Assembly (NCBI RefSeq): GCF_056712565.1
Contig: NZ_CM160072.1
Length of the DNA stretch: 64,000 bases
Strand: one strand, 5' to 3'
Part shown: one piece after another, positions 3,105 to 37,353 of the stretch
Layout of the letters: each line of letters opens with the position of its first letter
Numbering within the stretch: the stretch's first letter is position 1
Program-made: the position numbers and the translations under genes
The notes under the pieces: model-generated
What the model saw: only the letters and a program-made list of their open reading frames with translations
Told to the model about the DNA's origin: nothing
Database searches by the model: none

Positions 3105-3241
3105 TAATTCTGATTCCTCAACTTATTCGCCAGCCTTCAAAGGGGCAATATTGCCGGAGATACTACATTATCTGCCGCGTCGAGTCACAGGAGATCAGCG
3201 TGAATAGCGCCGCCGGACGTGCTCCGGCGGCGATAAAGGCA

Positions 3242-4849
3242 TCAATGTGCCTTGATATACAACTCTTTGCTGTAGACATAATCCTGGGGATTATGCAGCG
3301 GAAAACCGCCAACGTAGGGTTTAAGCAGTTTGATTAACGGCTGATAGTAGATGGGAATCAGCGGTGCCTGCTGGTTGATGATCACTTCTGCCTGCTGATA
3401 CAACGCATTACGCTTTGTCGCATCAGTGATCTGCGTGGCCTGGTTTAGTAAGGCGTCATACTGCGCATTTTTCCAGTGACCGACGTTTTCTTCACTATCG
3501 CTTTTGAGCGTGTTCAGGAAGCTGGAGGCATCATTGTACGTCGCATCCCACGACTGCCGAGACAGCATAAAATCACCGGCTCGTCGGGCATCAAGATAGG
3601 TTTTCCACTCCATTGTGCGCAGCGTCACCTGTGCACCCAGCCATTTTTTCCATTCGGAAGACAACGCTATCGCGGTCTTTTCATGCAGATCGTACTTGTT
3701 GTAGAACAGCTCAAAGCGTAGCGGATGAGAGGCGTCGTATCCCGCCTGTTTCAGCAAGACTTTTGCCATCGCGACGCGCTCACTCATTGGCTTTTGCAGT
3801 TCATCGAACGTCGTCGCGCTAAAGCCTTTTACCTCTGGCGGCGTCAGCGTGGTTGCGGGCGTTCTCAACCCCAGTACCTTTTGCGCAATAAGCTGTCGAT
3901 CAACCGTAAGATATAGCGCCCGACGCACCCGCACATCGTTAAATGGCGGTTTCTCAAGGTTAAAGTTGTAATATTCGCTGTTCAGACGCGGGATAATTCG
4001 TAGCTCGCCAGGCTGTGATTTTTCAATGGCGGGAATTTGCTGCGCCGGAACCCAGGTGAGATCGACCTCTCCCGCGCGATAGCGGTTATAGCCGGTGACC
4101 GAATTATCCAGCGCCAGATACTCAACCTGTTGCAATACTGTATGTTGCGCATCGCGGTACTTTGGATTTTTGCGTGCAGTAATCTTTTCGTTAACTACCC
4201 ATTTATCAAGCACAAAGGCACCGTTGTAAACCATGTTCTCTGGCTTACTCCAGCTATCGCCATGTTTAGCGATGACATGATGAGGAACCGGGAACAGCGT
4301 CGGCCAGGCGAGCATCGTCGTGAACCAAGGAACTGGCTGCTCAAGCGTAACTTCAAGAGTACGATCATCCGTCGCTTTGACACCCAGCGATGTAACATCT
4401 GCTTTACCCGCAACAATAGCCGCGGCATTGTTAATGTGCGCCTGTGCCAGATAGCCAGCAAAAGGGCTTGCCGTTTTCGGGTCAACCGCGCGCTGCCAGC
4501 CGAGGACAAAATCCTCTGCCGTCAGAGGCTGACCGTCTGACCACTGCAAACCGCTACGCAGATGGAAAATATAGCGCTTGCCGTCGTCAAGTATCTCCCA
4601 GCGTTCAGCCTGAGCGGGCTGCACCTGGCCTTCACCGTCCATCCATACCAGACCTTCAAACAGATCCAGCACAATCTGCGCGGCAGTATTCTCCTCTACC
4701 TTTTGCGGGTCGAGCGTGCCTGGGTCGCTATGATTGTTGTAACGAAAGACTTGTTGCGGGGCGAGCGGTGTGTTGGCGGGAACGTCAGCAGCGTAGAGAG
4801 GAGCCGCACTTACCAGGCTGACCAGCCATAATAAATTTCGCGTATACAT
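3242..4849 (-). CDS. ygiS: periplasmic solute-binding protein (family 5 SBP; YgiS)
   Basis: ORF 3242-4912; start placed at internal Met MYTRNLLWLVSLVSAAPLYA (signal peptide), giving 535 aa. Confidence 0.85.
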   Translation of the reverse strand: MYTRNLLWLVSLVSAAPLYAADVPANTPLAPQQVFRYNNHSDPGTLDPQKVEENTAAQIVLDLFEGLVWMDGEGQVQPAQAERWEILDDGKRYIFHLRSGLQWSDGQPLTAEDFVLGWQRAVDPKTASPFAGYLAQAHINNAAAIVAGKADVTSLGVKATDDRTLEVTLEQPVPWFTTMLAWPTLFPVPHHVIAKHGDSWSKPENMVYNGAFVLDKWVVNEKITARKNPKYRDAQHTVLQQVEYLALDNSVTGYNRYRAGEVDLTWVPAQQIPAIEKSQPGELRIIPRLNSEYYNFNLEKPPFNDVRVRRALYLTVDRQLIAQKVLGLRTPATTLTPPEVKGFSATTFDELQKPMSERVAMAKVLLKQAGYDASHPLRFELFYNKYDLHEKTAIALSSEWKKWLGAQVTLRTMEWKTYLDARRAGDFMLSRQSWDATYNDASSFLNTLKSDSEENVGHWKNAQYDALLNQATQITDATKRNALYQQAEVIINQQAPLIPIYYQPLIKLLKPYVGGFPLHNPQDYVYSKELYIKAH

Positions 4850-5885: not shown

Positions 5886-6036
5886 GTTTATTACTCCCTT
5901 TAATGTCTGTTTCCGAGCATTTAACAAGATAGTCCTTAACAACTTCTTAAGGGAAAAAAATAAAATTTAATGCTGTACAGAGCGCGTTACAACACGGTTT
6001 ACTGGCAGCAAATACGGTTATCGCAGGGATGAAAAA

Positions 6037-6696
6037 ATGCGAATTTTACTGATAGAAGATGACATGCTGATTGGCGACGGCATCAAAACGGGCCTTAGTA
6101 AAATGGGTTTTAGCGTCGACTGGTTTACACAAGGTCGTCAGGGAAAAGAGGCGCTATATAGCGCACCTTATGATGCGGTGATCCTGGATTTAACCTTACC
6201 GGGCATGGATGGTCGCGATATTTTGCGCGAATGGCGAGAAAAAGGTCAGCGTGAGCCGGTACTGATCCTGACCGCGCGCGATGCGCTGGCGGAACGTGTA
6301 GAAGGGCTGCGTCTGGGAGCTGACGATTATCTGTGTAAACCTTTTGCGTTGATAGAAGTCGCCGCCAGGCTGGAAGCTCTGATGCGCCGAACCAACGGCC
6401 AGGCCAGCAACGAGCTGCGCCACGGCAACGTCATGCTCGACCCCGGCAAACGTATCGCCACGCTGGCTGGCGAACCCTTAACGCTGAAACCAAAAGAATT
6501 TGCCCTGCTGGAATTACTGATGCGTAACGCTGGTCGGGTACTGCCGCGCAAACTGATTGAAGAGAAACTGTATACCTGGGACGAAGAGGTCACCAGTAAT
6601 GCCGTTGAAGTGCATGTGCATCATCTGCGACGCAAACTCGGCAGTGATTTTATTCGTACCGTGCATGGTATTGGCTACACATTAGGTGAGAAATGA
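6037..6696 (+). CDS. qseB: two-component response regulator QseB (OmpR family)
   Basis: 219-aa ORF with receiver domain (MRILLIEDD...) and winged-helix C-terminus; 4-bp overlap with following kinase gene. Confidence 0.92.
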
Positions 6697-8042
6697 AATT
6701 TACCCAACGTCTTAGTCTGCGAGTCAGGCTGACGCTAATCTTTTTAATTCTGGCCTCGGTGACCTGGCTGCTTTCCAGCTTTGTCGCCTGGAAACAAACA
6801 ACGGATAACGTCGATGAGTTGTTCGACACCCAACTGATGCTGTTTGCCAAACGGTTAAGTACGCTCGATCTCAACGAAATCAACGCGGCGGATCGCATGG
6901 CACAGACGCCAAATAAATTAAAACACGGTCATGTTGATGACGATGCGCTGACTTTTGCCATCTTTACCCACGACGGCAGAATGGTCCTTAACGATGGCGA
7001 TAACGGAGAAGATATTCCCTATAGCTATCAGCGGGAAGGTTTTGCTGACGGGCAACTGGTCGGTGAAGACGATCCCTGGCGTTTTGTCTGGATGACCTCA
7101 CCTGATGGCAAATATCGCATCGTTGTGGGTCAGGAATGGGAATACCGTGAAGACATGGCGCTGGCGATTGTTGCCGGACAATTGATCCCGTGGCTGGTCG
7201 CACTGCCGATTATGTTAATCATCATGATGGTACTACTGGGTCGTGAACTCGCGCCGCTGAACAAATTGGCGCTGGCACTACGTATGCGTGACCCAGACTC
7301 GGAAAAACCACTAAACGCGACGGGCGTACCCAGCGAAGTGCGCCCACTGGTTGAGTCGCTAAATCAACTGTTCGCCCGCACACATGCGATGATGGTTCGT
7401 GAACGACGCTTTACCTCCGACGCAGCTCACGAACTTCGTAGCCCGTTAACGGCGCTGAAAGTGCAAACCGAAGTTGCTCAGCTCTCTGACGATGATCCGC
7501 AGGCGCGGAAAAAAGCGCTGCTCCAATTACATTCCGGGATCGATCGCGCTACTCGTCTGGTTGATCAACTGCTCACGCTATCGCGGCTGGACTCACTGGA
7601 TAACCTTCAGGACGTCGCGGAGATCCCGCTTGAAGATCTCCTGCAATCGTCGGTGATGGATATTTACCACACGGCGCAGCAGGCGAACATTGACGTGCGA
7701 CTGACACTCAATGCCAACGGCATCAAACGCACCGGACAACCGCTATTGCTAAGTTTGTTGGTGCGAAATTTGCTGGATAACGCCGTGCGTTACAGTCCAC
7801 AAGGTAGCGTGGTAGACGTCACGCTGAATGCCGATAATTTCATCGTGAGGGATAACGGCCCCGGTGTGACGCCAGAGGCACTGGCGCGAATTGGCGAACG
7901 CTTCTATCGCCCACCCGGACAAACCGCTACCGGCAGTGGACTTGGGCTATCGATTGTCCAGCGAATCGCCAAGCTGCATGACATGAATGTTGAATTTGGG
8001 AATGCGGAACAAGGTGGATTTGAGGCGAAGGTAAGCTGGTAA
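6693..8042 (+). CDS. qseC: sensor histidine kinase QseC
   Basis: 449-aa ORF with two TM segments, H-box (AAHELRSPL) and ATPase motifs. Confidence 0.92.
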
Positions 8043-8049
8043 CTTCTCT

Positions 8050-8083
8050 GTCTATGAGAGCCGTTAAAACGACTCTCATAGAC
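8050..8083. terminator. bidirectional hairpin between convergent qseC and ygiZ
   Basis: Perfect 11-bp inverted repeat gtctatgagag ... ctctcatagac with 12-nt loop. Confidence 0.55.
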
Positions 8084-8087
8084 TTTA

Positions 8088-8420
8088 CTAATAGCAAAAT
8101 ATAAACCGTCCCCAAAAAAGCCACCAACCACAACCCAGACAAATAACGAGCGAGAATACATATAGCCAAAACTCGAACATTTCCCGCATAAAGAGTTTTC
8201 TTAAGATAAGAATAATAAGTGGTGTCAGAAGAAAAAATGCTGCAATCATTGCTTGCAATATACGATCTTCGCCTGAAACAGAAGGTATACTGCAAATATT
8301 GTCTCCCGACTCAAGCATCCAGTCATACTTATTGAAAGCAAAAAAAGAATCTATTAACCAATAAGTAAGCATTATATATAATAGTGCTTCAAATATTGAT
8401 AGTAGTTGTTTTTTTAACAT
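8088..8420 (-). CDS. ygiZ: small inner-membrane protein (about 3 TM helices); YgiZ-like; possible immunity protein of adjacent effector
   Basis: 110-aa ORF, hydrophobic segments, AT-rich; immediately downstream of the effector-like gene (6-bp gap). Confidence 0.6.
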   Translation of the reverse strand: MLKKQLLSIFEALLYIMLTYWLIDSFFAFNKYDWMLESGDNICSIPSVSGEDRILQAMIAAFFLLTPLIILILRKLFMREMFEFWLYVFSLVICLGCGWWLFWGRFIFCY

Positions 8421-8426
8421 ATCTGA

Positions 8427-9137
8427 TTACTCATTAATCAATTTTTTGATATGTTCTCTAATCTCTAACAACCTCATACCATAAGAGATGAATTTATAAT
8501 CATCTGTATCACGCGCAGGCAAATTATTAATTAAACAAATAAAAAAACCCAAATCTCGTTCAACACCACGATTATATCTAATACCAGCCATAATATACTG
8601 CTCATTCGTCATATACAGTGTTGCCGAAGAGGGATAATCAAAAAGAACAAGATCTCTTAAATAAGTAGCAGCAATTTGAAAGGTAAAATCATCCTCCATT
8701 AGGCATGTCGCTAACTCTAACTGATTTCTGGTAGTTAATTCTGAAGGGTCTAGACCTAGAGTAATCGCTGCGGTTCGTATTTGTATACCCATTGAGCCAA
8801 ATGATGTTTTATTTTCAGGCATATCTAACAATCCGATCATTCTTTTTGTTTCATATATCTGAAACTTATAATTTTCAGGCATACCTCCTGACTCAATCCA
8901 GGCCACGCCGCCCAGTAACTCTGGACGAATTCCAGCGGCGTATGCATGTTTAATTATTTTGTCTCTATTATATTGTACATATGCATCTTTATAAGCATTT
9001 AAATAATATACTCCTGAACGGCGACGCGAATCATTTTTTCCTAACTTCCAGAGTAAAACGTCCATTTCATCCCATTTACGGAACTTCGCTTGTGGAATTG
9101 TACAATATCTATTTTTTATAGTGAGATCGCTTTTCAT
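8427..9137 (-). CDS. hypothetical protein with lytic transglycosylase/lysozyme-like (SLT/GH23-type) motifs; candidate Hcp-associated T6SS effector
   Basis: ORF 8427-9164; start placed at ATG 9135-9137 (MKSDLTIKNRY...), 2 bp after hcp stop, with AAGGA RBS inside hcp 3' end. Motifs GGVAWIESGG, FGSMGIQ and AGIRYNRG in SLT-like order; no N-terminal signal peptide. Confidence 0.55.
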   Translation of the reverse strand: MKSDLTIKNRYCTIPQAKFRKWDEMDVLLWKLGKNDSRRRSGVYYLNAYKDAYVQYNRDKIIKHAYAAGIRPELLGGVAWIESGGMPENYKFQIYETKRMIGLLDMPENKTSFGSMGIQIRTAAITLGLDPSELTTRNQLELATCLMEDDFTFQIAATYLRDLVLFDYPSSATLYMTNEQYIMAGIRYNRGVERDLGFFICLINNLPARDTDDYKFISYGMRLLEIREHIKKLINE

Positions 9138-9139
9138 AT

Positions 9140-9619
9140 TTAAAAAATCCTTTCTTCCCAACAACTATATGATTCCGTACTCGCGATATGGTGCTTCCAT
9201 GTTATATTTTTATAATTAAGAACAATGACATCTTCCGGCTGATTACCCGCATGTGTAATTGAGTGTGGATAACATGTCAGAATATTCGATAAATGTGCTC
9301 CTTGCAATTCAATTGTGTAAAACCTTTCAATACAACCGCCAGAATTAATTCTATAAAAATTAAATACAGCTGATAACTCTTCATTTTCAGAAAGAGCGGC
9401 ATTTAATAAAGGGGAGGATTTATCTATTGGCTTGTAAAATTTTATGGGGTGATGCACTACATTATACTCTCGACTTAAAGAATGGTCGAACTGTAAAACA
9501 AAAATTTCATCCACATGATTTATTTGATATTTATTACCAATAGATGCATACGAACCACAACCCTCAGAGATCAAACCTTGTATTTTCCCTTTAATTGATA
9601 AGTATATCATATTTGACAT
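9140..9619 (-). CDS. hcp: Hcp family type VI secretion system tube protein (orphan hcp)
   Basis: 159-aa ORF MSNMIYLSIKGKIQG...; typical Hcp length and conserved blocks (N-terminal YL.IKG, central FYKPIDKSSPLL, C-terminal ITWKH) recognised from memory of Hcp1-family proteins. Confidence 0.75.
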   Translation of the reverse strand: MSNMIYLSIKGKIQGLISEGCGSYASIGNKYQINHVDEIFVLQFDHSLSREYNVVHHPIKFYKPIDKSSPLLNAALSENEELSAVFNFYRINSGGCIERFYTIELQGAHLSNILTCYPHSITHAGNQPEDVIVLNYKNITWKHHIASTESYSCWEERIF

Positions 9620-9868
9620 ATATATTCTCCATAATCATTTTTTCCGAAAAACTCCTGTATCATTTGCATAATACATCTCTCCTGTGGGAGCTTATGGGAA
9701 GTTGATTTAAGTATTGTCATTTTCAGAAAATATTTATCCCGCATCGGTGAATCAGAGAAAGATCAGACTTTTGCTAAATTCGCAAAAGACTTTGCACATT
9801 TTGCTAATTTCACCGTACCGCTCTGTGACGTACTATAGTCGGCAAACGTCTCACCTTGAGGTTAAAAA

Positions 9869-25012: not shown

Positions 25013-26173
25013 ATGGAAAGAGTCAGTATTACCGAGCGCCCGGACTGGCGCGAAAAAGCCCACGAATACGGTTTCAATTTTCACACCATGTACGGCGAGC
25101 CGTACTGGTGTGAAGATGCTTACTACAAGTTGACCCTCGCCCAGGTTGAAAAGCTGGAAGAAGTCACCGCCGAACTGCACCAGATGTGCCTGAAAGTGGT
25201 GGAAAAAGTGATCGCCAGCGATGAGCTGATGACCAAATTCCGCATTCCAAAACACACCTGGAGTTTTGTGCGCCAGTCATGGCTGACGCACCAGCCATCG
25301 CTTTATTCGCGTCTTGATCTGGCGTGGGATGGCACTGGCGAACCTAAACTTCTGGAAAATAACGCCGATACGCCAACGTCACTATACGAGGCGGCGTTCT
25401 TTCAGTGGATCTGGCTGGAAGATCAGCTTAACGCCGGTAACTTGCCGGAGGGCAGCGACCAGTTTAACAGTTTGCAAGAAAAGCTGATCGATCGCTTCGT
25501 TGAGCTGCGTGAACAGTATGGCTTCCAGTTGCTGCATCTCACCTGCTGTCGCGACACGGTGGAAGATCGCGGAACCATTCAGTATTTGCAGGACTGCGCG
25601 ACGGAAGCTGAAATCGCTACCGAGTTCCTCTACATCGACGATATCGGGTTAGGTGAAAAAGGTCAGTTCACGGATTTACAGGATCAGGTGATTTCCAACC
25701 TGTTCAAGCTGTATCCGTGGGAATTTATGTTGCGTGAGATGTTCTCCACCAAGCTGGAGGATGCAGGCGTACGCTGGCTGGAACCGGCGTGGAAGAGCAT
25801 TATCTCCAACAAAGCGCTTCTACCGCTACTGTGGGAGATGTTCCCGAATCACCCGAACCTGCTGCCCGCTTATTTTGCGGAAGATGATCATCCGCAAATG
25901 GAAAAATATGTGGTTAAACCGATCTTCTCCCGTGAAGGCGCAAACGTGTCGATCATTGAGAACGGCAAAACCATTGCAGCAGCGGAAGGTCCGTATGGCG
26001 AAGAAGGGATGATTGTTCAGCAATTCCACCCGTTACCGAAATTCGGCGACAGCTATATGCTGATTGGTAGCTGGCTGGTGAACGATCAACCTGCCGGAAT
26101 TGGCATTCGTGAAGACCGTGCATTGATCACCCAGGATATGTCTCGGTTTTATCCGCATATTTTTGTTGAGTAA
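25013..26173 (+). CDS. ygiC: glutathionylspermidine synthase-like ATP-grasp protein YgiC
   Basis: 386-aa ORF immediately after ygiB. Confidence 0.88.
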
Positions 26174-26657
26174 TACAGCTTAATATTGCCCCGATAAGCG
26201 GGGCAATCTCTTATAATCCACCATTCATAACTCCCATCAATATATAAACACATACATATCCAACCTTTATTTAACATTAATACTCAATTTAATGTTAAAT
26301 CGTCATATGCAAGCGATATTGTAATTAAAGTAAGTGAATACATCACAACATAACTATTTGATATTATTTAAATACTTTACTTTTATCTCACCAGATTTAA
26401 ATTTAATAATTAAAAAACAATGTTGCAGGGATCACACTACACAGTATTGAACATTGTGATTGATATATTGCCCCCCTACTATCCATTAAACATAAATATT
26501 TGTTTCACCGAATAACAACATATTTAAAAGAAACACAAAAGCATTCTCACTCTTTATTGAATTAATATTTATATTCACGTAACGAATTTATTAGCACCCT
26601 CTCAACAGTCGATATTCATCATTATTATATATTTGCGTTATATAAGGAGATATATCC

Positions 26658-28454
26658 ATGTTTGATAAATATAGAAAAACACTCGTAGCCGGAACTGTGG
26701 CGATAACCCTGGGTTTGTCAGCATCGGGGGTGATGGCTGCGGGTTTTAAACCAGCGCCACCTGCCGGGCAACTGGGTGCGGTCATTGTCGATCCCTACGG
26801 CAATGCACCACTGACCGCTTTGGTTGACTTAGATAGCCATGTTATTTCTGACGTCAAAGTTACCGTCCATGGGAAGGGCGAAAAAGGCGTAGAAATCAGC
26901 TATCCCGTGGGTCAGGAATCACTAAAAACTTACGATGGTGTACCGATTTTTGGTCTTTATCAGAAATTTGCTAACAAAGTGACCGTTGAGTGGAAAGAAA
27001 ACGGCAAGGTCATGAAAGATGATTATGTGGTGCACACTTCGGCCATCGTCAATAATTACATGGATAACCGCTCTATCTCCGATTTACAACAGACCAAAGT
27101 TATTAAAGTCGCACCGGGTTTTGAAGATCGCCTCTATCTGGTTAATACCCACACCTTTACCGCCCAAGGTTCCGATCTCCACTGGCATGGTGAGAAAGAT
27201 AAAAATGCCGGTATCCTTGATGCGGGTCCGGCAACCGGCGCACTCCCTTTTGATATCGCGCCCTTTACTTTCATCGTCGATACCGAAGGTGAATACCGCT
27301 GGTGGCTGGATCAAGACACTTTCTACGATGGTCGTGACCGCGATATCAACAAGCGTGGTTATCTGATGGGTATCCGCGAAACGCCACGCGGCACCTTTAC
27401 CGCTGTACAAGGTCAGCACTGGTACGAGTTCGACATGATGGGGCAGGTGCTCGAAGATCACAAACTACCGCGCGGATTTGCTGACGCCACTCATGAGTCC
27501 ATTGAGACGCCAAATGGCACGGTACTGTTGCGCGTAGGTAAGAGTAACTATCGTCGCGATGACGGCGTACACGTCACCACCATTCGTGACCATATCCTCG
27601 AAGTCGATAAATCTGGTCGCGTTGTCGATGTATGGGATCTGACCAAGATCCTCGATCCGAAACGCGATGCACTGCTCGGCGCGCTGGATGCAGGTGCAGT
27701 TTGCGTTAACGTTGACCTTGCCCATGCAGGACAACAGGCAAAACTGGAACCAGATACACCGTTCGGCGACGCGCTGGGTGTAGGGCCAGGCCGCAACTGG
27801 GCGCACGTGAACTCTATCGCCTATGACGCAAAAGATGACTCTATCATCCTCTCCTCTCGCCACCAGGGTGTTGTGAAGATTGGTCGTGATAAGCAAGTGA
27901 AATGGATCCTTGCGCCCTCTAAAGGTTGGGAAAAACCGCTGGCCAGCAAGCTGCTGAAACCGGTTGATGCTAACGGTAAGCCAATTACCTGTAACGAAAA
28001 TGGCCTGTGCGAAAACTCAGACTTCGACTTTACCTACACCCAGCATACCGCCTGGATTTCCAGCAAAGGAACGCTCACCATTTTTGATAATGGCGATGGG
28101 CGTCATCTGGAACAACCTGCCTTACCAACCATGAAATACTCTCGCTTTGTGGAATATAAGATTGATGAGAAGAAAGGCACCGTTCAGCAAGTGTGGGAAT
28201 ACGGTAAAGAACGTGGCTACGATTTCTATAGCCCGATTACCTCCATCATTGAATATCAAGCCGACCGTAACACCATGTTTGGCTTCGGTGGTTCTATTCA
28301 TTTGTTCGATGTCGGGCAGCCAACCGTCGGTAAGTTGAACGAAATCGATTACAAAACCAAAGAAGTGAAAGTGGAAATCGACGTGCTGTCAGATAAACCC
28401 AATCAGACTCACTACCGTGCGCTGTTAGTCCGTCCACAACAGATGTTCAAATAA
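26658..28454 (+). CDS. assT: periplasmic arylsulfate sulfotransferase
   Basis: 598-aa ORF with signal peptide; followed by dsbL and dsbI as in uropathogenic E. coli. Confidence 0.88.
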   Translation: MFDKYRKTLVAGTVAITLGLSASGVMAAGFKPAPPAGQLGAVIVDPYGNAPLTALVDLDSHVISDVKVTVHGKGEKGVEISYPVGQESLKTYDGVPIFGLYQKFANKVTVEWKENGKVMKDDYVVHTSAIVNNYMDNRSISDLQQTKVIKVAPGFEDRLYLVNTHTFTAQGSDLHWHGEKDKNAGILDAGPATGALPFDIAPFTFIVDTEGEYRWWLDQDTFYDGRDRDINKRGYLMGIRETPRGTFTAVQGQHWYEFDMMGQVLEDHKLPRGFADATHESIETPNGTVLLRVGKSNYRRDDGVHVTTIRDHILEVDKSGRVVDVWDLTKILDPKRDALLGALDAGAVCVNVDLAHAGQQAKLEPDTPFGDALGVGPGRNWAHVNSIAYDAKDDSIILSSRHQGVVKIGRDKQVKWILAPSKGWEKPLASKLLKPVDANGKPITCNENGLCENSDFDFTYTQHTAWISSKGTLTIFDNGDGRHLEQPALPTMKYSRFVEYKIDEKKGTVQQVWEYGKERGYDFYSPITSIIEYQADRNTMFGFGGSIHLFDVGQPTVGKLNEIDYKTKEVKVEIDVLSDKPNQTHYRALLVRPQQMFK

Positions 28455-28471
28455 TTAAGAAGGGAATAAAA

Positions 28472-29140
28472 ATGTCGAAATTAGGGATCTCATCACTATT
28501 TAAAACCATACTGCTTACCGCAGCTCTGGCGGTTTCATTTACCGCTTCTGCATTTACCGAAGGCACGGATTACATGGTTCTGGAAAAACCAATTCCGAAT
28601 GCCGACAAAACGCTGATTAAGGTATTTAGCTACGCCTGCCCGTTCTGTTACAAGTACGACAAAGCGGTTACCGGTCCGGTATCGGAAAAAGTGAAAGATA
28701 TCGTTGCTTTCACGCCATTCCATCTGGAAACAAAAGGTGAATACGGCAAACAAGCAAGCGAAGTCTTTGCGGTCTTGATCAATAAAGATAAAGCAGCAGG
28801 CATTTCCTTATTTGATGCTAACTCTCAGTTTAAGAAAGCCAAGTTTGCCTACTACGCGGCTTATCACGACAAAAAAGAACGCTGGTCTGACGGTAAAGAT
28901 CCGGCTGCTTTTATCAAAACCGGTCTGGATGCCGCAGGTATGAGTCAGGCGGATTTTGAAGCGGCACTGAAAGAACCAGCGGTTCAAGAAACACTGAAAA
29001 AATGGAAAGCCTCTTATGATGTCGCCAAAATCCAGGGAGTTCCAGCCTATGTCGTTAATGGTAAGTACTTGATCTACACCAAGAGCATCAAATCCATCGA
29101 CGCGATGGCAGACCTTATCCGTGAGTTAGCAAGCAAATAA
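28472..29140 (+). CDS. dsbL: periplasmic thiol:disulfide oxidoreductase DsbL (DsbA paralogue)
   Basis: 222-aa ORF with signal peptide and CPFC active-site motif. Confidence 0.88.
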
Positions 29141-29154
29141 CAGGGAAACAGGCT

Positions 29155-29826
29155 ATGGGTATTAAGGGAATGTGGAAAGATCTTCGCACATCACCAGTTG
29201 ACACACTGGTCAGATGGCAGGAGCAACGCTTGTTGTGGTTGTTAATGGCCGTTGCGATGGGCGCGTTAATTATCCTGGCGCACTCTTTCTTCCAGATCTA
29301 TCTCTACATGGCACCCTGTGAGCAATGTGTATACATTCGCTACGCCATGTTTGTGATGGTTATTGGAGGATTGGTTGCAGCGATCAACCCAAAGAACATC
29401 ATCCTAAAGCTAATTGGCTGCGTGATGGCATTTTACGGCAGCATTTTGGGACTGAAGTTTTCGCTCAAACTGAACGATATCCACCATGCAGTACATAATC
29501 CGGATCCCGATTCACTGTTTGGCGTACAGGGTTGCTCTACCGATCCCACTTTTCCCTTTAACCTGCCGCTGGCACAGTGGGCACCAAATTGGTTCAAGCC
29601 TACCGGGGATTGTGGCTATGACGCACCAATCGTTCCTGATGGCGTCACACTGAGCAGCACGCAACAGTGGTTTGTGGAAATGTATCAGCAATCTGAAGGC
29701 TGGTATCTGCTACCACCATGGCATTTTATGAATATGGCTCAGGCTTGTATGCTGGCTTTTGGTATGTGTCTGGTGCTGCTGGTCATTATGAGTGGCGCAT
29801 GGGCGCTTAAAATCATCAGAGGCTAA
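29155..29826 (+). CDS. dsbI: membrane disulfide oxidoreductase DsbI (DsbB paralogue)
   Basis: 223-aa membrane ORF with CEQC motif. Confidence 0.88.
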
Positions 29827-29835
29827 CTCAGCAAC

Positions 29836-29870
29836 ACCCGAAGCCAGTCGTTCTGGCTTCGGGTTCTTTT
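29836..29870. terminator. bidirectional hairpin terminator between dsbI and ygiD
   Basis: acccgaagccag-tcgtt-ctggcttcgggt perfect stem followed by tctttt. Confidence 0.65.
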
Positions 29871-29871
29871 A

Positions 29872-30660
29872 TTAACCTATCTGCACCGACAGCATACTTA
29901 AACTGCCCATTTCTATACCATCGACCGGAATGGTAATTGGCTCCTGCCCATCCCACGCCCCTAAGACATACAACAACGGCAGATAGTGCTCTGGCGTTGG
30001 GTTCGATAACGCGCCACCTTCATGGTCGAGATAATTCACCAGAGGATGTTGTTCCACTGGCCCTTGCCACGTCAGATTCGCTTTCACATACTCATTAAAC
30101 GACGTCGCCCACGGATACGGTGAACTATCACCGTGCCACTTCACTGTACGCAGGTTATGCACCACGTTGCCACTGGCGACCAACATTATCCCTTCATCAC
30201 GCAGCGCCGCGAGTTTGCGCCCCATTTCGAAATGCCAGGCGGCAGGTTTGCTACTGTCGATACTCAACTGCACCATCGGGATATCGGCGTCAGGGTACAT
30301 CTTAATCAGCACTCCCCAGGAACCGTGGTCAAAGCCCCAGGCTTCTTTATCCAGCGCCACAGGAACCGGCGCTAACAGCTCAACCAGACGCTGTGCCAGC
30401 GCAGGCGAACCCGGAGCAGGATAATGCGTATCGTACAGTGCCTGCGGGAAGCCACCAAAATCATGAATCGTGGGCGGCGTCTCCATCGCGGTCACTCCTG
30501 TTCCCCGGGTAAACCAGTGAGCCGAAACCACCACAATCGCTTTCGGGCGTGGCAATGTCATTCCCAACGTCTGCCAGCTGCGGGTATACAAATTATCTTC
30601 CAGCACGTTCATCGGACTACCGTGACCTAAAAACAATGCTGGCATACGTGTTGAAGACAT
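29872..30660 (-). CDS. ygiD: 4,5-DOPA dioxygenase extradiol-like protein YgiD
   Basis: ORF 29872-30687; start placed at MSSTRMPALFLGHGSPMN (262 aa). Confidence 0.88.
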   Translation of the reverse strand: MSSTRMPALFLGHGSPMNVLEDNLYTRSWQTLGMTLPRPKAIVVVSAHWFTRGTGVTAMETPPTIHDFGGFPQALYDTHYPAPGSPALAQRLVELLAPVPVALDKEAWGFDHGSWGVLIKMYPDADIPMVQLSIDSSKPAAWHFEMGRKLAALRDEGIMLVASGNVVHNLRTVKWHGDSSPYPWATSFNEYVKANLTWQGPVEQHPLVNYLDHEGGALSNPTPEHYLPLLYVLGAWDGQEPITIPVDGIEMGSLSMLSVQIG

Positions 30661-30802: not shown

Positions 30803-31576
30803 ATGTCAGTACCTCTCATTCTGACCATACTGGCGGGGGCAGCCACGTTTATTGGCGCGTTTCTCGGCGTTCTCGGGCAAAAACCCTCGAACCGCTTACT
30901 GGCGTTTTCGCTAGGATTTGCGGCGGGGATCATGTTGCTCATCTCATTAATGGAAATGCTTCCTGCCGCATTAGCCGCCGAAGGAATGTCGCCTGTGTTG
31001 GGTTATGGAATGTTTATCTTCGGTCTGCTTGGCTATTTTGGCCTGGACCGCATGTTGCCACATGCGCATCCGCAGGATTTAATGCAAAAATCGGTGCAGC
31101 CGTTGCCAAAATCGATCAAGCGCACAGCCATTCTGCTCACTCTCGGCATCAGTCTGCATAACTTCCCGGAAGGGATTGCCACCTTTGTCACGGCGAGCAG
31201 CAACCTGGAGCTGGGATTTGGCATCGCCCTGGCCGTAGCGTTGCACAATATTCCTGAAGGTCTGGCGGTTGCAGGCCCGGTTTACGCTGCAACAGGATCG
31301 AAACGTACCGCGATTCTGTGGGCGGGCATTTCCGGACTGGCTGAAATTCTCGGTGGCGTTCTGGCGTGGTTAATTCTTGGCAGCATGATTTCTCCGGTGG
31401 TCATGGCGGCAATCATGGCGGCGGTTGCAGGAATTATGGTGGCGCTCTCCGTTGATGAATTAATGCCGCTCGCCAAAGAGATTGACCCCAATAATAACCC
31501 CAGCTATGGCGTGCTATGTGGAATGTCAGTGATGGGATTCAGTTTAGTGCTGCTACAAACGGCGGGAATTGGTTAA
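30803..31576 (+). CDS. zupT: zinc transporter ZupT (ZIP family)
   Basis: ORF 30761-31576; start placed at [22 protein letters not shown] (257 aa). Confidence 0.92.
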
Positions 31577-31637: not shown

Positions 31638-31823
31638 TTATTGATGCTTTTCAAACACTTCTTTATCGGAGCGTTTATCTAATTTACTTCGGGCAGCTAA
31701 CAGCGCATCTCTGTCATGGCGAAAAGCTTTACAGTAACGTTTAAGATGAAGAAAATAGCCACCAGCCAGTAGAACAATTAATACAATCCAGTACCAGGCA
31801 ATAAACATCCTTTTCACCTTCAA
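31638..31823 (-). CDS. small single-TM membrane protein (61 aa), hypothetical
   Basis: ORF MKVKRMFIAWYWIVLIVLLAGGYFLHLKRY... with one hydrophobic helix and basic tail; flanked by terminator hairpin and AT-rich upstream region. Confidence 0.4.
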   Translation of the reverse strand: MKVKRMFIAWYWIVLIVLLAGGYFLHLKRYCKAFRHDRDALLAARSKLDKRSDKEVFEKHQ

Positions 31824-32378
31824 AATTTAACATTACTAAACATTTAGCGTTAAAATTTCACATATCCATCGTTGAATACATTCATATACTCGCATAATTC
31901 TGGATCAAGTATATGATTTCGATCATAGTAAGTGTTGTATTATATACCATATCTGGTCAAAAAAAGAACAACCAAGGCTATTAATATATATTATCCCCCG
32001 ATAAAACATTACTAATTAATAATAAAACTTAATAAGCATCGCTAGATATATATTATATCTTCACGATTATTAAGCCCCTACTCGTTATAATAAGTATACA
32101 CTCCCCCCTTTACAACATTAGGCGTAAACCTTTGTCAACAAACGGTTGTTTTTTCGCCGCAATTCATACAAAAAAATTATCACAAATAACGATAAACAAC
32201 AAACATCTAGATATATACACCTCAATATATAACGGGGAATTATATTTTAAGTTTTACTTAATCAGCATTTAATATAAATAACGAGTCAAATTATCTCAGG
32301 TTATGGTAATGTCCATAGCTGAATTAATATTAAATTCAAACCTGTATTTTCCTCATCCATTTATAAAGGATTATAGTC

Positions 32379-32942
32379 ATGTTAAAAAAAACATTGTTAT
32401 CTATGTTCGCAACCGCATTGTTATCAGGCGTTGCTTTTAACGCTCTTGCTGACGATGCTAATCAGGGTTCAGGTAAAATTACTTTTAAAGGTGAAGTTAT
32501 CGATGCACCTTGTTCTATTGCTCCTGGTGATGAAGATCAGACAATAAACCTCGGTGAAGTTGCTGATACCGTATTAAAAAGCGGTCAGAAATCACTGCCT
32601 GTAGATGTCACCATTCATTTGCAGGATTGTATTTTATCTGACGGCACTAACACTGTTGATAAAGTCAAAATCACCTTTAGTTCTGCCAGTGTTGACGCTA
32701 CCGACTCCAACCTGCTTAAAAACACTCTGGAAGGTAACATCGGCGGCGCAACTGATGTAGGCGTACGTCTGGTGAAATCAGACAACACCAACGTGACTCT
32801 TGGCACTCCAATCACTATCAACTTCCCGACGACTAACTCTTACCAGGAGTTGAACTTTAAAGCCCGTATGGAGTCTCTGGGACGCACCGCGACCCCGGGT
32901 AACGTGCAGGCACAGGCTAATTACGTACTCGACTACAAGTAA
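32379..32942 (+). CDS. fimbrial major subunit (chaperone-usher pilin)
   Basis: 187-aa ORF with signal peptide, pilin Cys pair and C-terminal beta-strand (…ANYVLDYK). Confidence 0.85.
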   Translation: MLKKTLLSMFATALLSGVAFNALADDANQGSGKITFKGEVIDAPCSIAPGDEDQTINLGEVADTVLKSGQKSLPVDVTIHLQDCILSDGTNTVDKVKITFSSASVDATDSNLLKNTLEGNIGGATDVGVRLVKSDNTNVTLGTPITINFPTTNSYQELNFKARMESLGRTATPGNVQAQANYVLDYK

Positions 32943-33028
32943 TCGGTAGTCAATACCTACACAACGCCAGGCGGTAAAGCCGATGAAATTTCATCGGCAA
33001 CTTTGGGCCTTTTTAGAAATGGATTTTT

Positions 33029-35551
33029 ATGAACAATAAAAACACGTTTTCCCGGGATAAGTTATCCCATGCAATTAAAAATGCCCTGTCTGGCGTTGTG
33101 TGTTCCCTACTCTTCGTTTTGCCAGTCCACGCCGTAGAATTCAACGTCGATATGATTGACGCAGAAGACCGTGAGAATATCGACATCTCTCGTTTTGAGA
33201 AAAAAGGCTATATCCCCCCTGGTAGATACCTCGTTCGTGTGCAAATAAATAAAAATATGTTGCCACAAACGTTAATACTGGAATGGGTAAAAGCCGATAA
33301 TGAAAGTGGTTCGTTACTCTGCTTAACCAAAGAAAATTTGACTAATTTCGGTCTTAATACGGAATTTATTGAATCATTGCAAAACATAGCTGGCAGCGAA
33401 TGTCTCGATTTAAGCCAACGTCAGGAGTTAACGACACGACTTGATAAAGCTACGATGATATTATCGCTAAGTGTTCCCCAGGCATGGTTAAAATACCAGG
33501 CAACAAACTGGACGCCACCAGAGTTTTGGGATACCGGTATCGCCGGGTTTATCCTTGATTACAACGTGTACGCCAGCCAGTATGCCCCACATCACGGAGA
33601 CAGCACCCAAAACGTCAGCTCCTATGGTACGTTAGGCTTTAACCTCGGCGCATGGCGCTTACGTAGCGATTACCAATATAATCAGAATTTTGCTGATGGA
33701 CGCTCGGTAAACCGCGACAGCGAATTTGCGCGAACTTATCTGTTTCGCCCTATCCCCTCCTGGTCGTCAAAATTCACTATGGGCCAGTACGACCTGAGCT
33801 CCAATCTTTACGATACCTTCCACTTTACTGGCGCATCGCTGGAAAGTGATGAAAGCATGCTGCCGCCAGATTTACAGGGTTATGCGCCACAAATTACCGG
33901 CATCGCGCAGACCAACGCGAAAGTAACTGTGGCACAAAATGGTCGTGTACTTTATCAAACCACTGTCGCGCCAGGCCCTTTTACTATTTCTGATTTGGGG
34001 CAATCGTTTCAGGGGCTGCTGGATGTCACAGTGGAAGAAGAAGATGGCCGCACCAGCACCTTCCAGGTTGGCTCCGCATCCATTCCCTATTTAACCCGTA
34101 AAGGGCAAGTGCGCTATAAAACGTCACTGGGAAAACCGACATCCGTCGGGCATAACGATATCAATAATCCCTTTTTCTGGACGGCGGAAGCCTCCTGGGG
34201 CTGGCTGAACAATGTGTCGTTGTATGGTGGTGGCATGTTCACCGCTGATGATTATCAGGCTATCACTACCGGTATTGGCTTTAACCTTAACCAATTCGGT
34301 TCGCTTTCTTTTGATGTCACTGGAGCAGACGCGTCTTTACAGCAACAAAATAGCGGCAATCTGCGTGGTTACAGCTATCGCTTCAACTATGCAAAGCATT
34401 TCGAATCGACAGGCAGTCAGATTACCTTCGCGGGTTATCGCTTCTCAGATAAAGATTACGTGTCGATGAGTGAGTACCTCAGCTCGCGTAATGGCGATGA
34501 GTCAATCGATAATGAAAAAGAGAGTTATGTCATTTCCTTGAACCAGTACTTTGAAACGCTGGAATTAAACTCTTATCTCAACGTTACACGCAATACTTAT
34601 TGGGACAGCGCCAGCAATACCAACTACTCCGTATCTGTAAGCAAAAACTTTGATATTGGCGATTTCAAAGGTATATCTGCATCGCTGGCAGTAAGTCGAA
34701 TCCGCTGGGATGACGACGAAGAGAATCAATATTACTTCTCTTTCTCTCTACCTTTACAACAAAACCGCAACATCTCCTACAGTATGCAGCGAACGGGAAG
34801 CAGTAATACTTCGCAGATGATTTCCTGGTACGATTCATCAGATCGCAACAATATCTGGAATATTTCAGCGTCGGCAACGGACGACAATATACGTGATGGC
34901 GAACCAACACTGCGCGGCAGCTACCAGCACTATTCGCCGTGGGGACGTCTGAACATTAATGGCAGTGTACAGCCGAATCAGTACAATTCTGTTACCGCAG
35001 GCTGGTACGGTTCACTTACCGCTACACGTCATGGTATCGCCCTTCACGATTATAGCTATGGCGATAACGCCCGCATGATGGTCGATACCGATGGCATCTC
35101 CGGCATTGAAATCAACTCTAACCGTACCGTTACCAACGGGCTGGGCATCGCCGTGATACCTTCGTTATCGAACTACACCACCTCCATGTTGCGGGTGAAC
35201 AATAACGATCTGCCAGAAGGTGTCGATGTCGAAAACTCGGTTATTCGCACCACGCTCACCCAGGGTGCCATCGGCTACGCAAAACTGAATGCCACCACCG
35301 GTTACCAAATCGTCGGCGTTATTCGTCAGGAAAATGGGCGCTTCCCTCCACTAGGTGTGAATGTCACGGATAAAGCGACAGGTAAAGATGTGGGCCTGGT
35401 CGCGGAAGACGGCTTCGTTTATCTCAGCGGTATTCAGGAAAATAGTACTCTGCATTTAACCTGGGGTGATAATACCTGTGAAGTCACGCCGCCAAACCAA
35501 AGTAACATTAGCGAAAGCGCAATAATTTTACCTTGTAAAACAGTCAAATAA
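33029..35551 (+). CDS. fimbrial outer-membrane usher
   Basis: 840-aa ORF with signal peptide, in usher position. Confidence 0.88.
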   Translation: MNNKNTFSRDKLSHAIKNALSGVVCSLLFVLPVHAVEFNVDMIDAEDRENIDISRFEKKGYIPPGRYLVRVQINKNMLPQTLILEWVKADNESGSLLCLTKENLTNFGLNTEFIESLQNIAGSECLDLSQRQELTTRLDKATMILSLSVPQAWLKYQATNWTPPEFWDTGIAGFILDYNVYASQYAPHHGDSTQNVSSYGTLGFNLGAWRLRSDYQYNQNFADGRSVNRDSEFARTYLFRPIPSWSSKFTMGQYDLSSNLYDTFHFTGASLESDESMLPPDLQGYAPQITGIAQTNAKVTVAQNGRVLYQTTVAPGPFTISDLGQSFQGLLDVTVEEEDGRTSTFQVGSASIPYLTRKGQVRYKTSLGKPTSVGHNDINNPFFWTAEASWGWLNNVSLYGGGMFTADDYQAITTGIGFNLNQFGSLSFDVTGADASLQQQNSGNLRGYSYRFNYAKHFESTGSQITFAGYRFSDKDYVSMSEYLSSRNGDESIDNEKESYVISLNQYFETLELNSYLNVTRNTYWDSASNTNYSVSVSKNFDIGDFKGISASLAVSRIRWDDDEENQYYFSFSLPLQQNRNISYSMQRTGSSNTSQMISWYDSSDRNNIWNISASATDDNIRDGEPTLRGSYQHYSPWGRLNINGSVQPNQYNSVTAGWYGSLTATRHGIALHDYSYGDNARMMVDTDGISGIEINSNRTVTNGLGIAVIPSLSNYTTSMLRVNNNDLPEGVDVENSVIRTTLTQGAIGYAKLNATTGYQIVGVIRQENGRFPPLGVNVTDKATGKDVGLVAEDGFVYLSGIQENSTLHLTWGDNTCEVTPPNQSNISESAIILPCKTVK

Positions 35552-35557
35552 TTCAGG

Positions 35558-36307
35558 ATGAATATAATGAAATCACCATTAATCACAACAGGAATGATTT
35601 GTTTACTGGGGATCTGCAACTTTGCCCAGGCGACTGTCTCTCCCGACAGAACACGCATCATTTTTAATGCTTCGAATAAAAGCGCAACGGTTCGCCTGAC
35701 CAACCAAAGTAAAATCGATCCCTATCTGGCTCAGTCGTGGATTGAAGATGCCAGCGGTAAAAAAACGCGTGATTACATCTCGACATTGCCGCCGATGGAA
35801 CGTATTGAGCCTGATGAACAGATACAAATTCGCCTGATGGCACTGGCCTCGTTAAACGACTTACCACAGGACCGAGAAACGTTGTTCTACTATAACGTGC
35901 GAGAAATTCCGCCGCGCGCCAAAGAACAGAATGTAATGCAAATCGCCATGCAAAGCCGCCTGAAGCTATTCTGGCGGCCAAAAGCGATTGAGTTAAAAGA
36001 GGGGGAGATGATTCCTCTGCAAAAAGTAACGATTACCCGCACCGCCGCCGGTCTGACCCTGAATAACCCGACGCCTTATCATATTACCGTCGGTTATATC
36101 GGCACTAATGGCAAGACACTGATGCCCGGTGCGGACAGTATTATGGTGGTACCATTTACTTCTGCAACTCAACACCTAAGCAGCCTGCCCTCTACCTTCC
36201 AGTTAGGCTTTGTGGCGGACTACGGCGGGCTGGAGATGTTTAAAGTCGAATGTAATTCCATCCAATCCCTCTGCCAAACCTCTCCTGCTAAGAAGGGGAA
36301 AATATGA
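35558..36307 (+). CDS. fimbrial periplasmic chaperone (PapD-like)
   Basis: 249-aa ORF with signal peptide; 4-bp overlap with adhesin gene. Confidence 0.85.
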   Translation: MNIMKSPLITTGMICLLGICNFAQATVSPDRTRIIFNASNKSATVRLTNQSKIDPYLAQSWIEDASGKKTRDYISTLPPMERIEPDEQIQIRLMALASLNDLPQDRETLFYYNVREIPPRAKEQNVMQIAMQSRLKLFWRPKAIELKEGEMIPLQKVTITRTAAGLTLNNPTPYHITVGYIGTNGKTLMPGADSIMVVPFTSATQHLSSLPSTFQLGFVADYGGLEMFKVECNSIQSLCQTSPAKKGKI

Positions 36308-37353
36308 TTACGCTTTTTCGTTTACTGGCGATTCTTTGCCTGTTTTTTAACGTTTCAGCTTTTGCTGTTGATTGCTATCAGGATGGGTACAGAGGAACAA
36401 CCCTCATAAATGGAGATTTACCAGCGTTCAAAATTCCAGAGAACGCGCAACCTGGGCAAAAAATTTGGGAGAGTGGAGATATTAATATCACGGTTTATTG
36501 TGACAATGCACCAGGATGGACAACAGACAATCCATCAGAAAATATCTATGCCTGGATCAAATTACCCCAAATAAATAGTGCCGACATGTTGAATAATCCA
36601 TATTTAACCTTTGGCGTGACTTATAATGGTGTAGATTATGAAGGGATAAATGAAAGAATTGATACTCATGCATGCCTGGATAAATATGAGCAATACTATA
36701 ATGGGTATTATTATGACCCTGTATGCAATGGCAGTACCCTTCAAAAAAATGTAACATTTAATGCCCATTTTCGCGTCTATGTAAAATTCAAAAGCCGCCC
36801 AGCAGGAGATCAGACGGTGAACTTTGGCATAGTCAACGTGTTACAATTCGATGGCGAAGGAGGGGCAAACATGTCCTCTAACGCGAAGAATTTACGCTAT
36901 GTGATTACGGGATTAGATAATATTTCATTCCTTGACTGTAGTGTCGACGTCCGGATTTTTCCAGAAAGCCAGATAGTTAATTTCGGGCAAATTGCTGCAA
37001 ACTCTATTGCTACTTATCGACCAAAAGCTGCATTTAGCGTATCTACTATAAAAGATGTTGCTGCCGATTGTACCGAGCAATTTGATGTTGCCACCAGCTT
37101 TTATACGACAGATACGTTACATGATGATACGCATCTGGAAATGGGTAATGGTTTGTTGATGCGTATTACTGATCAAAAAACACAAGAAGACATTAAGTTT
37201 AATCAGTACAAACGCTTCACCACATATATTCCAGGTCAGACTGGAGCGATGGTTACCCGTGATTACCAGGCTGAACTTTCACAAAAACCGGGGGAGACTC
37301 TCGTTTATGGGCCTTTCAAAAAAGATCTCATCGTAAAAATAAACTATAACTGA
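36304..37353 (+). CDS. fimbrial tip adhesin (two-domain: lectin + pilin domain)
   Basis: 349-aa ORF with signal peptide, Cys-rich N-terminal domain; last gene of operon. Confidence 0.75.
   Translation: MITLFRLLAILCLFFNVSAFAVDCYQDGYRGTTLINGDLPAFKIPENAQPGQKIWESGDINITVYCDNAPGWTTDNPSENIYAWIKLPQINSADMLNNPYLTFGVTYNGVDYEGINERIDTHACLDKYEQYYNGYYYDPVCNGSTLQKNVTFNAHFRVYVKFKSRPAGDQTVNFGIVNVLQFDGEGGANMSSNAKNLRYVITGLDNISFLDCSVDVRIFPESQIVNFGQIAANSIATYRPKAAFSVSTIKDVAADCTEQFDVATSFYTTDTLHDDTHLEMGNGLLMRITDQKTQEDIKFNQYKRFTTYIPGQTGAMVTRDYQAELSQKPGETLVYGPFKKDLIVKINYN

Follow-up and report, generated by a model that had tools for sequence, protein, structure and literature searches.

The aryl-sulfate sulfotransferase ASST works as a homodimer in the periplasm. 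It passes sulfuryl groups from one phenol to another without 3'-phosphoadenosine 5'-phosphosulfate (PAPS), in a ping-pong reaction that passes through a sulfurylated His436 (PMC13426309). The sulfuryl group is bound by His252, His356, Asn358, Arg374 and Thr501, and the single disulfide of the enzyme, Cys418-Cys424, is essential for activity (PMC13426309). The ASST operon also encodes DsbL and DsbI, which are required to produce the active enzyme efficiently (PMC13426309, PMC6067686) and constitute an additional redox pair of the uropathogenic Escherichia coli (UPEC) strain CFT073 (PMC6067686). In that strain the chromosomal ASST gene is not expressed under standard laboratory conditions (PMC7810732). 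Here we analyze positions 26,174 to 29,871 of a 64,000-nucleotide stretch (hereafter the window) of contig NZ_CM160072.1 from RefSeq assembly GCF_056712565.1. We conclude with high confidence that this region, located between ygiC and ygiD, is a UPEC-type assT-dsbL-dsbI operon that combines the sulfotransferase, its redox pair, an AT-rich leader and, probably, an old chromosomal residence.

The open reading frame (ORF) list of the window contains three co-directional + strand genes, at the positions and with the CPFC and CEQC motifs that a preliminary description of this DNA had reported. That description had staked its naming on alignment to AssT, DsbL and DsbI, and all three proteins match.

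assT, 26658..28454, + strand: 598-residue precursor of a periplasmic, PAPS-independent aryl-sulfate sulfotransferase; the 27-residue signal peptide is encoded by 26658-26738
dsbL, 28472..29140, + strand: DsbA-like periplasmic dithiol oxidase of 222 residues, with a CPFC active site
dsbI, 29155..29826, + strand: DsbB-like inner-membrane protein, predicted quinone-linked reoxidase of DsbL, 223 residues, with CEQC plus C127/C153

AssT is the crystallized enzyme. Residues 28-598 are identical, at 571 of 571 positions, to the chain of UPEC CFT073 ASST in PDB 3ELQ, and likewise to 3ETS and 3ETT. Pfam matches PF05935 (453.9 bits) and PF17425 (99.8 bits) stand against cut-offs of 24.2 bits and, together with the 3ELQ identity, establish that both the N-terminal Ig-like beta-sandwich and the C-terminal six-bladed beta-propeller ASST domain are present. 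The N-terminus is a hydrophobic stretch of 27 residues ending in VMA, directly before the first residue of the crystallized mature chain. Because the mature sequence equals that of the crystallized protein, the catalytic residues and the cysteine pair are present as well: His436, His252, His356, Asn358, Arg374 and Thr501 are all found by identity to the crystal sequence, and Cys418 and Cys424 sit within TCNENGLC at mature positions 417-424. Aryl sulfotransferase activity with phenolic sulfate donors has been measured for the identical CFT073 protein (PMC13426309, PMC7810732), and by this identity the AssT of the present strain would be expected to share it. AssT would be exported to the periplasm by its 27-residue signal peptide, dimerize there and, without PAPS, hand the sulfuryl group of a phenolic sulfate ester on to a second phenol via a transient sulfo-His436 (mature numbering).

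DsbL and DsbI are equally recognizable. DsbL has a signal peptide and the thioredoxin/DsbA fold. Its residues 28-222 match PDB 3C7M at 194 of 195 positions, the single difference being K in place of E; CPFC occupies residues 56-59, and the Pfam DSBA family PF01323 scores 48.9 bits. Against the DsbA equivalog NF008198, DsbL reaches only 77.8 bits where the cut-off is 279, and because this score lies so far under the cut-off we assign DsbL as a DsbA paralogue and not as DsbA. The NCBIfam model for the DsbI equivalog, NF003304, gives DsbI 417.7 bits (cut-off 212), and the DsbB equivalog gives it 82.9 bits (cut-off 157); the Pfam DsbB family PF02600 also matches. The CEQC motif of DsbI is at residues 55-58, and in alignments to E. 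coli DsbB (PDB 3E9J, 2HI7) C55/C58 and C127/C153 fall on the two periplasmic-loop cysteine pairs. In the proposed pathway, DsbL would introduce the Cys418-Cys424 bond into AssT through its CPFC site, and DsbI would reoxidize DsbL and pass electrons onward to membrane quinones, a step attributed to Grimshaw 2008 in PMC6067686 and PMC13426309.

The three genes are arranged as a unit. They share a strand, are separated by gaps of only 17 nt (assT-dsbL) and 14 nt (dsbL-dsbI), each containing a Shine-Dalgarno-like sequence, and are followed by the only strong terminator, at 29836-29864. Their order is identical in 20 enterobacterial loci. From the tight gaps, the single strong terminator and the invariant gene order, we infer that assT, dsbL and dsbI form one co-transcribed operon. 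For S. Typhi, internal start sites for dsbL-dsbI have been reported. Transcription would run from one or more promoters in the leader through all three genes and end at the hairpin after dsbI:

Operon intrinsic terminator, 29836..29874, + strand: hairpin at 29836-29864 plus a T-run that overlaps the ygiD stop codon (29872-29874)

This hairpin has 12 pairs, of which 8 are G-C, with a folding energy of -23.5 kcal/mol and a z-score of -7.5; 0 of 200 shuffled sequences fold as well. It folds equally on both strands, with a T-run on the + strand only (TCTTTTATTA). On the - strand, the sequence that follows the hairpin is GUGUUGCUGAGUU, without a U-tract, and a terminator consensus scan finds no - strand terminator at 29836-29864. 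The preliminary description had called this element a strong bidirectional terminator. On the + strand it is an intrinsic terminator of textbook form; 'bidirectional' is half right for this genome. Citrobacter, Salmonella and Intestinirhabdus also have this hairpin (CCGAAGCC...GGCTTCGG) 3' of dsbI, accompanied there by both an A-run and a T-run. Because both runs are present, the terminator of Salmonella and Citrobacter is predicted to be truly bidirectional between dsbI and ribB, and the Escherichia copies have lost the A-run.

The genome that carries this operon is that of a urinary isolate. Across 4 kb, the window shows 100% identity to the type strain of the species, E. coli ATCC 11775 (= DSM 30083), on whose chromosome the RefSeq annotation places, in the interval from ygiC to ygiD, an aryl-sulfate sulfotransferase, DsbA/DsbL and DsbI. 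ATCC 11775 / DSM 30083 is a phylogroup B2 strain obtained in 1941 from a cystitis patient's urine (PMC4334874), and the suggestion that this is an extraintestinal pathogenic E. coli (ExPEC)-type genome is therefore right.

We compared the ygiC-ygiD junction with that of genomes that lack the module. Its two flanking genes lie outside the module:

ygiC, 25013..26173, + strand: glutathionylspermidine synthase family, upstream flank; ORF and RefSeq annotation
ygiD, 29872..30660, - strand: 4,5-DOPA dioxygenase extradiol, convergent downstream flank; RefSeq annotation

The last 74 nt of ygiC align with K-12 up to the stop codon, with 72 of 74 positions identical, and the alignment with K-12 ygiD begins at its stop codon, 29872-29874. 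Between these two points K-12 has a spacer of just 37 bp. The module occurs in 1508 of 5426 complete E. coli genomes (28%), and each of 20 sampled module-less genomes showed an identical 340-bp match span, corresponding to the 37-bp spacer. In K-12 (positions 1675-1711 of locus L002) and O157 (L003), this spacer is a perfect palindrome of 37 bp, TACCGGATGGC-ACTC-GCCATCCGGTA (-23 kcal/mol), that resembles a repetitive extragenic palindromic (REP) element. The hairpin begins 8 nt past the ygiC stop codon, the same offset as the REP at the ygiC-ygiD junction of Salmonella and Citrobacter, which it resembles. It shares nothing with either end of the module, and we therefore rejected a clean excision in K-12.

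Isolates from other sources carry the module too. The bovine isolate XJ6.1, the swan isolate S1bESBLb and the Japanese isolate WP5-S18-ESBL-08, whose source is not recorded, all have it with a K-12-type YgiC and without the fimbrial cluster found in B2 strains. The module is thus not restricted to uropathogens. The earlier designation as an accessory module of UPEC stands as to identity and accessory status, with the qualification that more than a quarter of complete genomes, bovine and swan isolates among them, have the module.

Several lines of evidence suggest that the module is ancestral at this site. The order ygiC-[assT-dsbL-dsbI]-ygiD recurs in E. albertii, E. whittamii, Escherichia sp. 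MOD1-EC7003 and a divergent representative labeled 'E. coli'. Nucleotide identity to the window is 96–99% within E. coli; for E. whittamii it is 92–93% in the module versus 89–94% in the flanks, and for Pseudocitrobacter, Salmonella and Citrobacter it is 77–82% versus 76–86%. No divergence spike was seen next to the indel, and a recent foreign import of either allele is accordingly unsupported. The usual marks of a mobile element or pathogenicity island are also missing: we found no meaningful direct or inverted repeats flanking the module, no tRNA within 27 kb of it, no integrase, and no copy on a true plasmid in PLSDB. Coding GC across the module genes is 0.42-0.57, near the genome average (50.3% for the window). 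Because the site is shared across Escherichia, divergence mostly tracks the flanks and mobile features are lacking, we conclude that the module was probably ancestral between ygiC and ygiD in the genus and was lost in K-12, O157 and similar lineages. More broadly, it would be an old chromosomal resident of the tolC-ribB neighborhood in Enterobacteriaceae.

The preliminary description had presented the module as an insertion, which probably reads the event in the wrong direction. A fuller form of that idea, in which the module is a horizontally acquired ExPEC/UPEC islet placed between ygiC and ygiD in pathogenic lineages, could draw on its variable presence among E. coli genomes, on a leader whose AT-richness is typical of foreign DNA, and on the K-12 REP-like hairpin, which at its Salmonella/Citrobacter offset could itself be the ancestral state. 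The DsbL/DsbI pair has moreover been described as missing from commensal and enteric pathotypes (PMC6067686). We nonetheless consider an islet very unlikely, given the average GC of the coding sequences, the lack of repeats, tRNA, integrase and true plasmid copies, the same junction in other Escherichia lineages, the match of module and flank divergence from E. coli out to Salmonella, and the bovine, swan and other isolates that carry the module within K-12-type flanks.

Two side observations touch these comparisons. The only PLSDB matches are three records, NZ_CP134663.1 and NZ_CP141089.1 (4.9 Mb each) and NZ_LN868944.1 (728 kb), which are evidently chromosomes or chromosome fragments; 'plasmid' matches of this kind need a size check, and one such 'plasmid' place also appears among the E. 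coli genome matches. In zupT, identity to K-12-like and O157 sequences dips to 88–89% at 31222-31371 in a gene that is otherwise 94–100% identical, and this dip may be a recombination patch.

Other genera keep the module in the same neighborhood at different positions. Escherichia has the order ygiC-[assT-dsbL-dsbI]-ygiD-zupT-yqiD. In Citrobacter, Salmonella enterica subsp. arizonae and Intestinirhabdus, the order is tolC-ygiB-ygiC-REP-ygiD-zupT-yqiD-[assT-dsbL-dsbI]-ribB-ubiK, which puts the module at a yqiD-ribB site ~2 kb from ygiC-ygiD. Pseudocitrobacter has a third order, ygiC-yqiD-[assT-dsbL-dsbI]-REP-ygiD-zupT. The terminator hairpin described above moves between sites along with the genes, and the relocated unit would also include the proximal leader. 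One speculative route to the three orders is that ygiD-zupT-yqiD-assT-dsbL-dsbI was duplicated in tandem and that copies were then reciprocally lost; tblastn and blastn detected no trace of yqiD in the leader of E. coli.

In B2 E. coli, the yqiD-ribB junction, vacated under this scenario, is now filled by a chaperone-usher fimbrial cluster. This cluster (32379-37353) comprises four genes, for a fimbrial-like subunit, an usher, a chaperone and a pilus protein, and has its own, very AT-rich leader at 31824-32378 (GC ~0.28). K-12-like genomes have nothing at yqiD-ribB, and Salmonella and Citrobacter have the assT module exactly there. Because XJ6.1, S1bESBLb and WP5-S18-ESBL-08 bear the module and lack the cluster, the two polymorphisms are independent. 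Next to the cluster, a yqiD-like - strand ORF at 31638-31823 encodes WP_001296421.1, annotated as 'hypothetical protein'. It is ~68% identical to the YqiD protein WP_000469266.1 of the non-B2 strains XJ6.1 and S1bESBLb (the same accession in the K-12-like LR-71-1), and its C-terminus, on the side adjoining the fimbrial cluster, is wholly different. Elsewhere, Citrobacter sp. On2M (L051, positions 3094-4611) has a fragmentary AssT match of 63% identity at the usual position after zupT, with no DsbL or DsbI match following it, and may hold a decayed copy of the module.

Upstream of assT lies the most AT-rich 484-bp tract in the 64 kb; equally AT-rich sequence makes up 0.2% of all 484-bp windows, so the extreme composition noted in the preliminary description is real. 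We distinguish the following elements in and around this tract:

Leader (assT regulatory region), 26174..26657, + strand: 484 bp, 28.1% GC versus 50.3% for the window
Hairpin after the ygiC stop codon, 26185..26207, + strand: 9 pairs, -15.4 kcal/mol, z = -3.4; not mentioned in the preliminary description
Conserved upstream block, 26410..26489, + strand: candidate operator and distal promoter; conservation per 10 nt of 0.64-0.94
Candidate proximal promoter, 26599..26628, + strand: CTCTCA-18-TATTAT, scoring 8/12 in a loose scan, in a partly conserved region
assT ribosome-binding site, 26644..26649, + strand: AAGGAG, 8 nt before the ATG

The leader contains conserved, putatively regulatory sequence and no sign of an encoded product. 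Rfam returned no match in 25900-30100 at a permissive E-value, so this interval contains no known riboswitch, leader or small RNA. No ORF longer than 42 residues was found lying within the leader. The single ORF above that length, a 64-residue - strand ORF at 26591-26785, runs antisense into assT, and none of the small ORFs in the leader is gene-like. Other Escherichia lineages and Pseudocitrobacter keep a hairpin with different stem sequences at the site corresponding to 26185-26207; the hairpin of the window fails the T-run criterion of the terminator scan. It is a probable weak ygiC terminator that would insulate assT from read-through.

Conservation divides the leader into two parts. The proximal ~250 bp have homologues upstream of assT in Citrobacter, Salmonella and Pseudocitrobacter, and the distal part is conserved within Escherichia only. 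Across 11 aligned homologous leaders from 4 genera, conservation peaks at 26410-26489, at 26620-26629 and around the ribosome-binding region, where ATATAAGGAGATATATCCATG is nearly invariant in 13 taxa. Within the 26410-26489 block the peak is GATCACACTA, with 94% conservation. This block also contains an inverted repeat, AACAATGT at 26416 and ACATTGT at 26451, and a conserved candidate distal promoter in which a -35-like TTGTGA (26454-26459) is separated by a 17-nt spacer from a -10-like TACTAT (26477-26482).

A conserved block of this kind bears on whether the leader does anything beyond its last few bases. The leader might instead be mostly decayed filler from local rearrangement, for example a degenerate yqiD, with no silencing role and with expression decided by a short promoter-proximal segment. 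Such an origin would fit the real yqiD homologue that separates ygiC from assT in Pseudocitrobacter, the position of yqiD directly upstream of the assT leader in Salmonella and Citrobacter, and a distal leader (26174-26400) that is unconserved outside Escherichia and only 80–83% identical between E. coli allele classes. On the other side, tblastn and blastn detect no remnant of yqiD here, the S. Typhi orthologue is under H-NS and LeuO control in what PMC4264507 relays, and four genera share a conserved block at 170-240 bp upstream of the ATG, which argues for a functional region larger than a minimal promoter. Decayed filler is, on this balance, quite unlikely.

We favor a regulated leader, silenced by H-NS and relieved by LeuO or by specific conditions, as a plausible account. 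It is supported by orthology as well as by base composition, because the assT-dsbL-dsbI cluster of S. Typhi is repressed by H-NS and activated by LeuO in a growth-condition-dependent manner, as PMC4264507 reports in citing Gallego-Hernandez 2012. By analogy, the AT-rich leader would keep the E. coli operon silent in ordinary growth through H-NS-type binding, until an activator such as LeuO, or particular conditions, relieved the silencing.

The conserved block also raises the question of whether the operon is mainly activated by cyclic AMP (cAMP) and its receptor protein CRP, in a class I arrangement at the distal promoter, instead of or besides H-NS and LeuO. In the CRP-like 22-mer at 26418-26439, the right half-site GATCACA (26430-26436) is perfect, and 11 taxa of 4 genera keep it. 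Class I CRP sites are canonically centered at -61.5, and the start predicted from TTGTGA-17-TACTAT would place this site ~60.5 bp upstream, close to that position. That start is itself only a prediction, however, and the left half-site is poor (TGTTG, TGTCG or TGCAA). Core matches with two mismatches are no more frequent than chance (23 found, 27 expected), and our literature search found no paper tying ASST to catabolite repression in enterobacteria. We regard CRP as the main activator as unlikely. A joint reading, in which the module relocated within a 10-kb neighborhood and class I cAMP-CRP control was layered on H-NS/LeuO, is possible but doubtful. As far as we found, neither the relocation of the assT unit nor its ~70-bp promoter/CRP-like block has been described in the literature.

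The regulatory region also varies among E. coli strains. The leaders of XJ6.1 and S1bESBLb (positions 3175-3658 of L057 and L058) are 80–85% identical to that of the window, with 98.2% identity in assT and 94% in dsbL, and E. coli thus has distinct leader allele classes. This pattern points to a mosaic produced by recombination or to a fast-evolving regulatory region. A further extended tract rich in AT, at 8049-9837 of the window, falls to a GC of 0.31 over 484 bp.

Some of our observations weigh against the account of a dedicated, silenced and anciently resident operon. A standard sigma-70 scan of the + strand of the leader finds no consensus promoter; the CTCTCA-18-TATTAT candidate lies under its threshold, and a looser scan yields candidates that reach only 8/12. 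Silencing in E. coli is extrapolated from the S. Typhi orthologue and from base composition. As to ancestry, Escherichia sp. MOD1-EC7003 is the one exception to the tracking of module and flanks: its assT and dsbL (L006, positions 6001-9168) are 84–85% identical to the window, versus 92–97% for tolC, ygiB, ygiC and zupT. Its flanks may have recombined with E. coli, or its module may be an older allele. Because empty sites hold a REP-like spacer that is no remnant of the module ends, the loss, which is the probable direction of the event, would not have been a clean deletion. Finally, the redox pair is dedicated only in a relative sense, given that plasmid-expressed ASST in CFT073 is oxidized by DsbA while chromosomal dsbLI is silent (PMC7810732).

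The practical value of these results is the correct annotation of a structurally and biochemically characterized ASST/DsbL/DsbI system, one that serves as a read-out in screens for DsbA inhibitors and as a biocatalyst for PAPS-free sulfation. The sequence adds nothing on the physiological substrates of ASST or its role in infection. What it does add are minor refinements: a module that is probably ancestral to the genus and not an island, its different position in sister genera, a conserved upstream block, a terminator that is only half bidirectional, and leader allele classes. These may help in switching the silent chromosomal operon on, or in using the locus as a phylogenetic marker.

Other gut bacteria have AST/dsbA-type gene pairs that are only distant relatives. 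Campylobacter, for example, has AssT homologues of ~45% identity with DsbL-like and DsbI-like genes a few kb away at most, in a different order and orientation and with extra DsbL copies. In Campylobacter metagenome-assembled genomes and C. showae (L026-L055), a DsbL-like gene follows assT, and an opposite-strand pair of a DsbI-like and a second DsbL-like gene, 52–68% identical to the E. coli proteins, lies a few kb off. With Dsb-like genes this near to assT, the ASST/DsbL/DsbI association extends to Campylobacterota in another layout.

Within Enterobacteriaceae, the module of S. enterica (S. Typhi IMSS-1 / S. Typhimurium) has the same gene order, with 85–87% protein and ~78% nucleotide identity. 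Its proximal leader and terminator hairpin are homologous to those described here, whereas its distal leader is not, and its terminator has an A-run as well as the T-run found here. In S. enterica subsp. arizonae and Citrobacter, the module occupies the yqiD-ribB junction after zupT instead of ygiC-ygiD.

DsbA/DsbB, the general pair for disulfide oxidation in the E. coli periplasm, has the same folds and chemistry, with a CXXC oxidase of thioredoxin fold and a membrane partner that carries four cysteines. The alignment of DsbL to DsbA has an E-value of ~1e-12, and DsbI aligns with DsbB over residues 23-154, both cysteine pairs included. The active site is CPFC in DsbL versus CPHC in DsbA (PMC6067686), and unlike DsbA/DsbB, the DsbL/DsbI pair is encoded together with a single client enzyme; the two pairs are paralogues, not orthologues.

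The closest system is CFT073 assT-dsbL-dsbI itself (3ELQ/3ETS/3ETT and 3C7M; Grimshaw et al. 2008 and Malojcic et al. 2008, as those studies are cited by later work). Mature AssT is identical to it, DsbL is one residue apart, DsbI is an equivalog, and gene order and the ygiC/ygiD site match RefSeq. There is no difference of substance; the strain is a different B2 strain, ATCC 11775. This locus is thus a member, not a variant, of a system already characterized structurally, biochemically and genetically.

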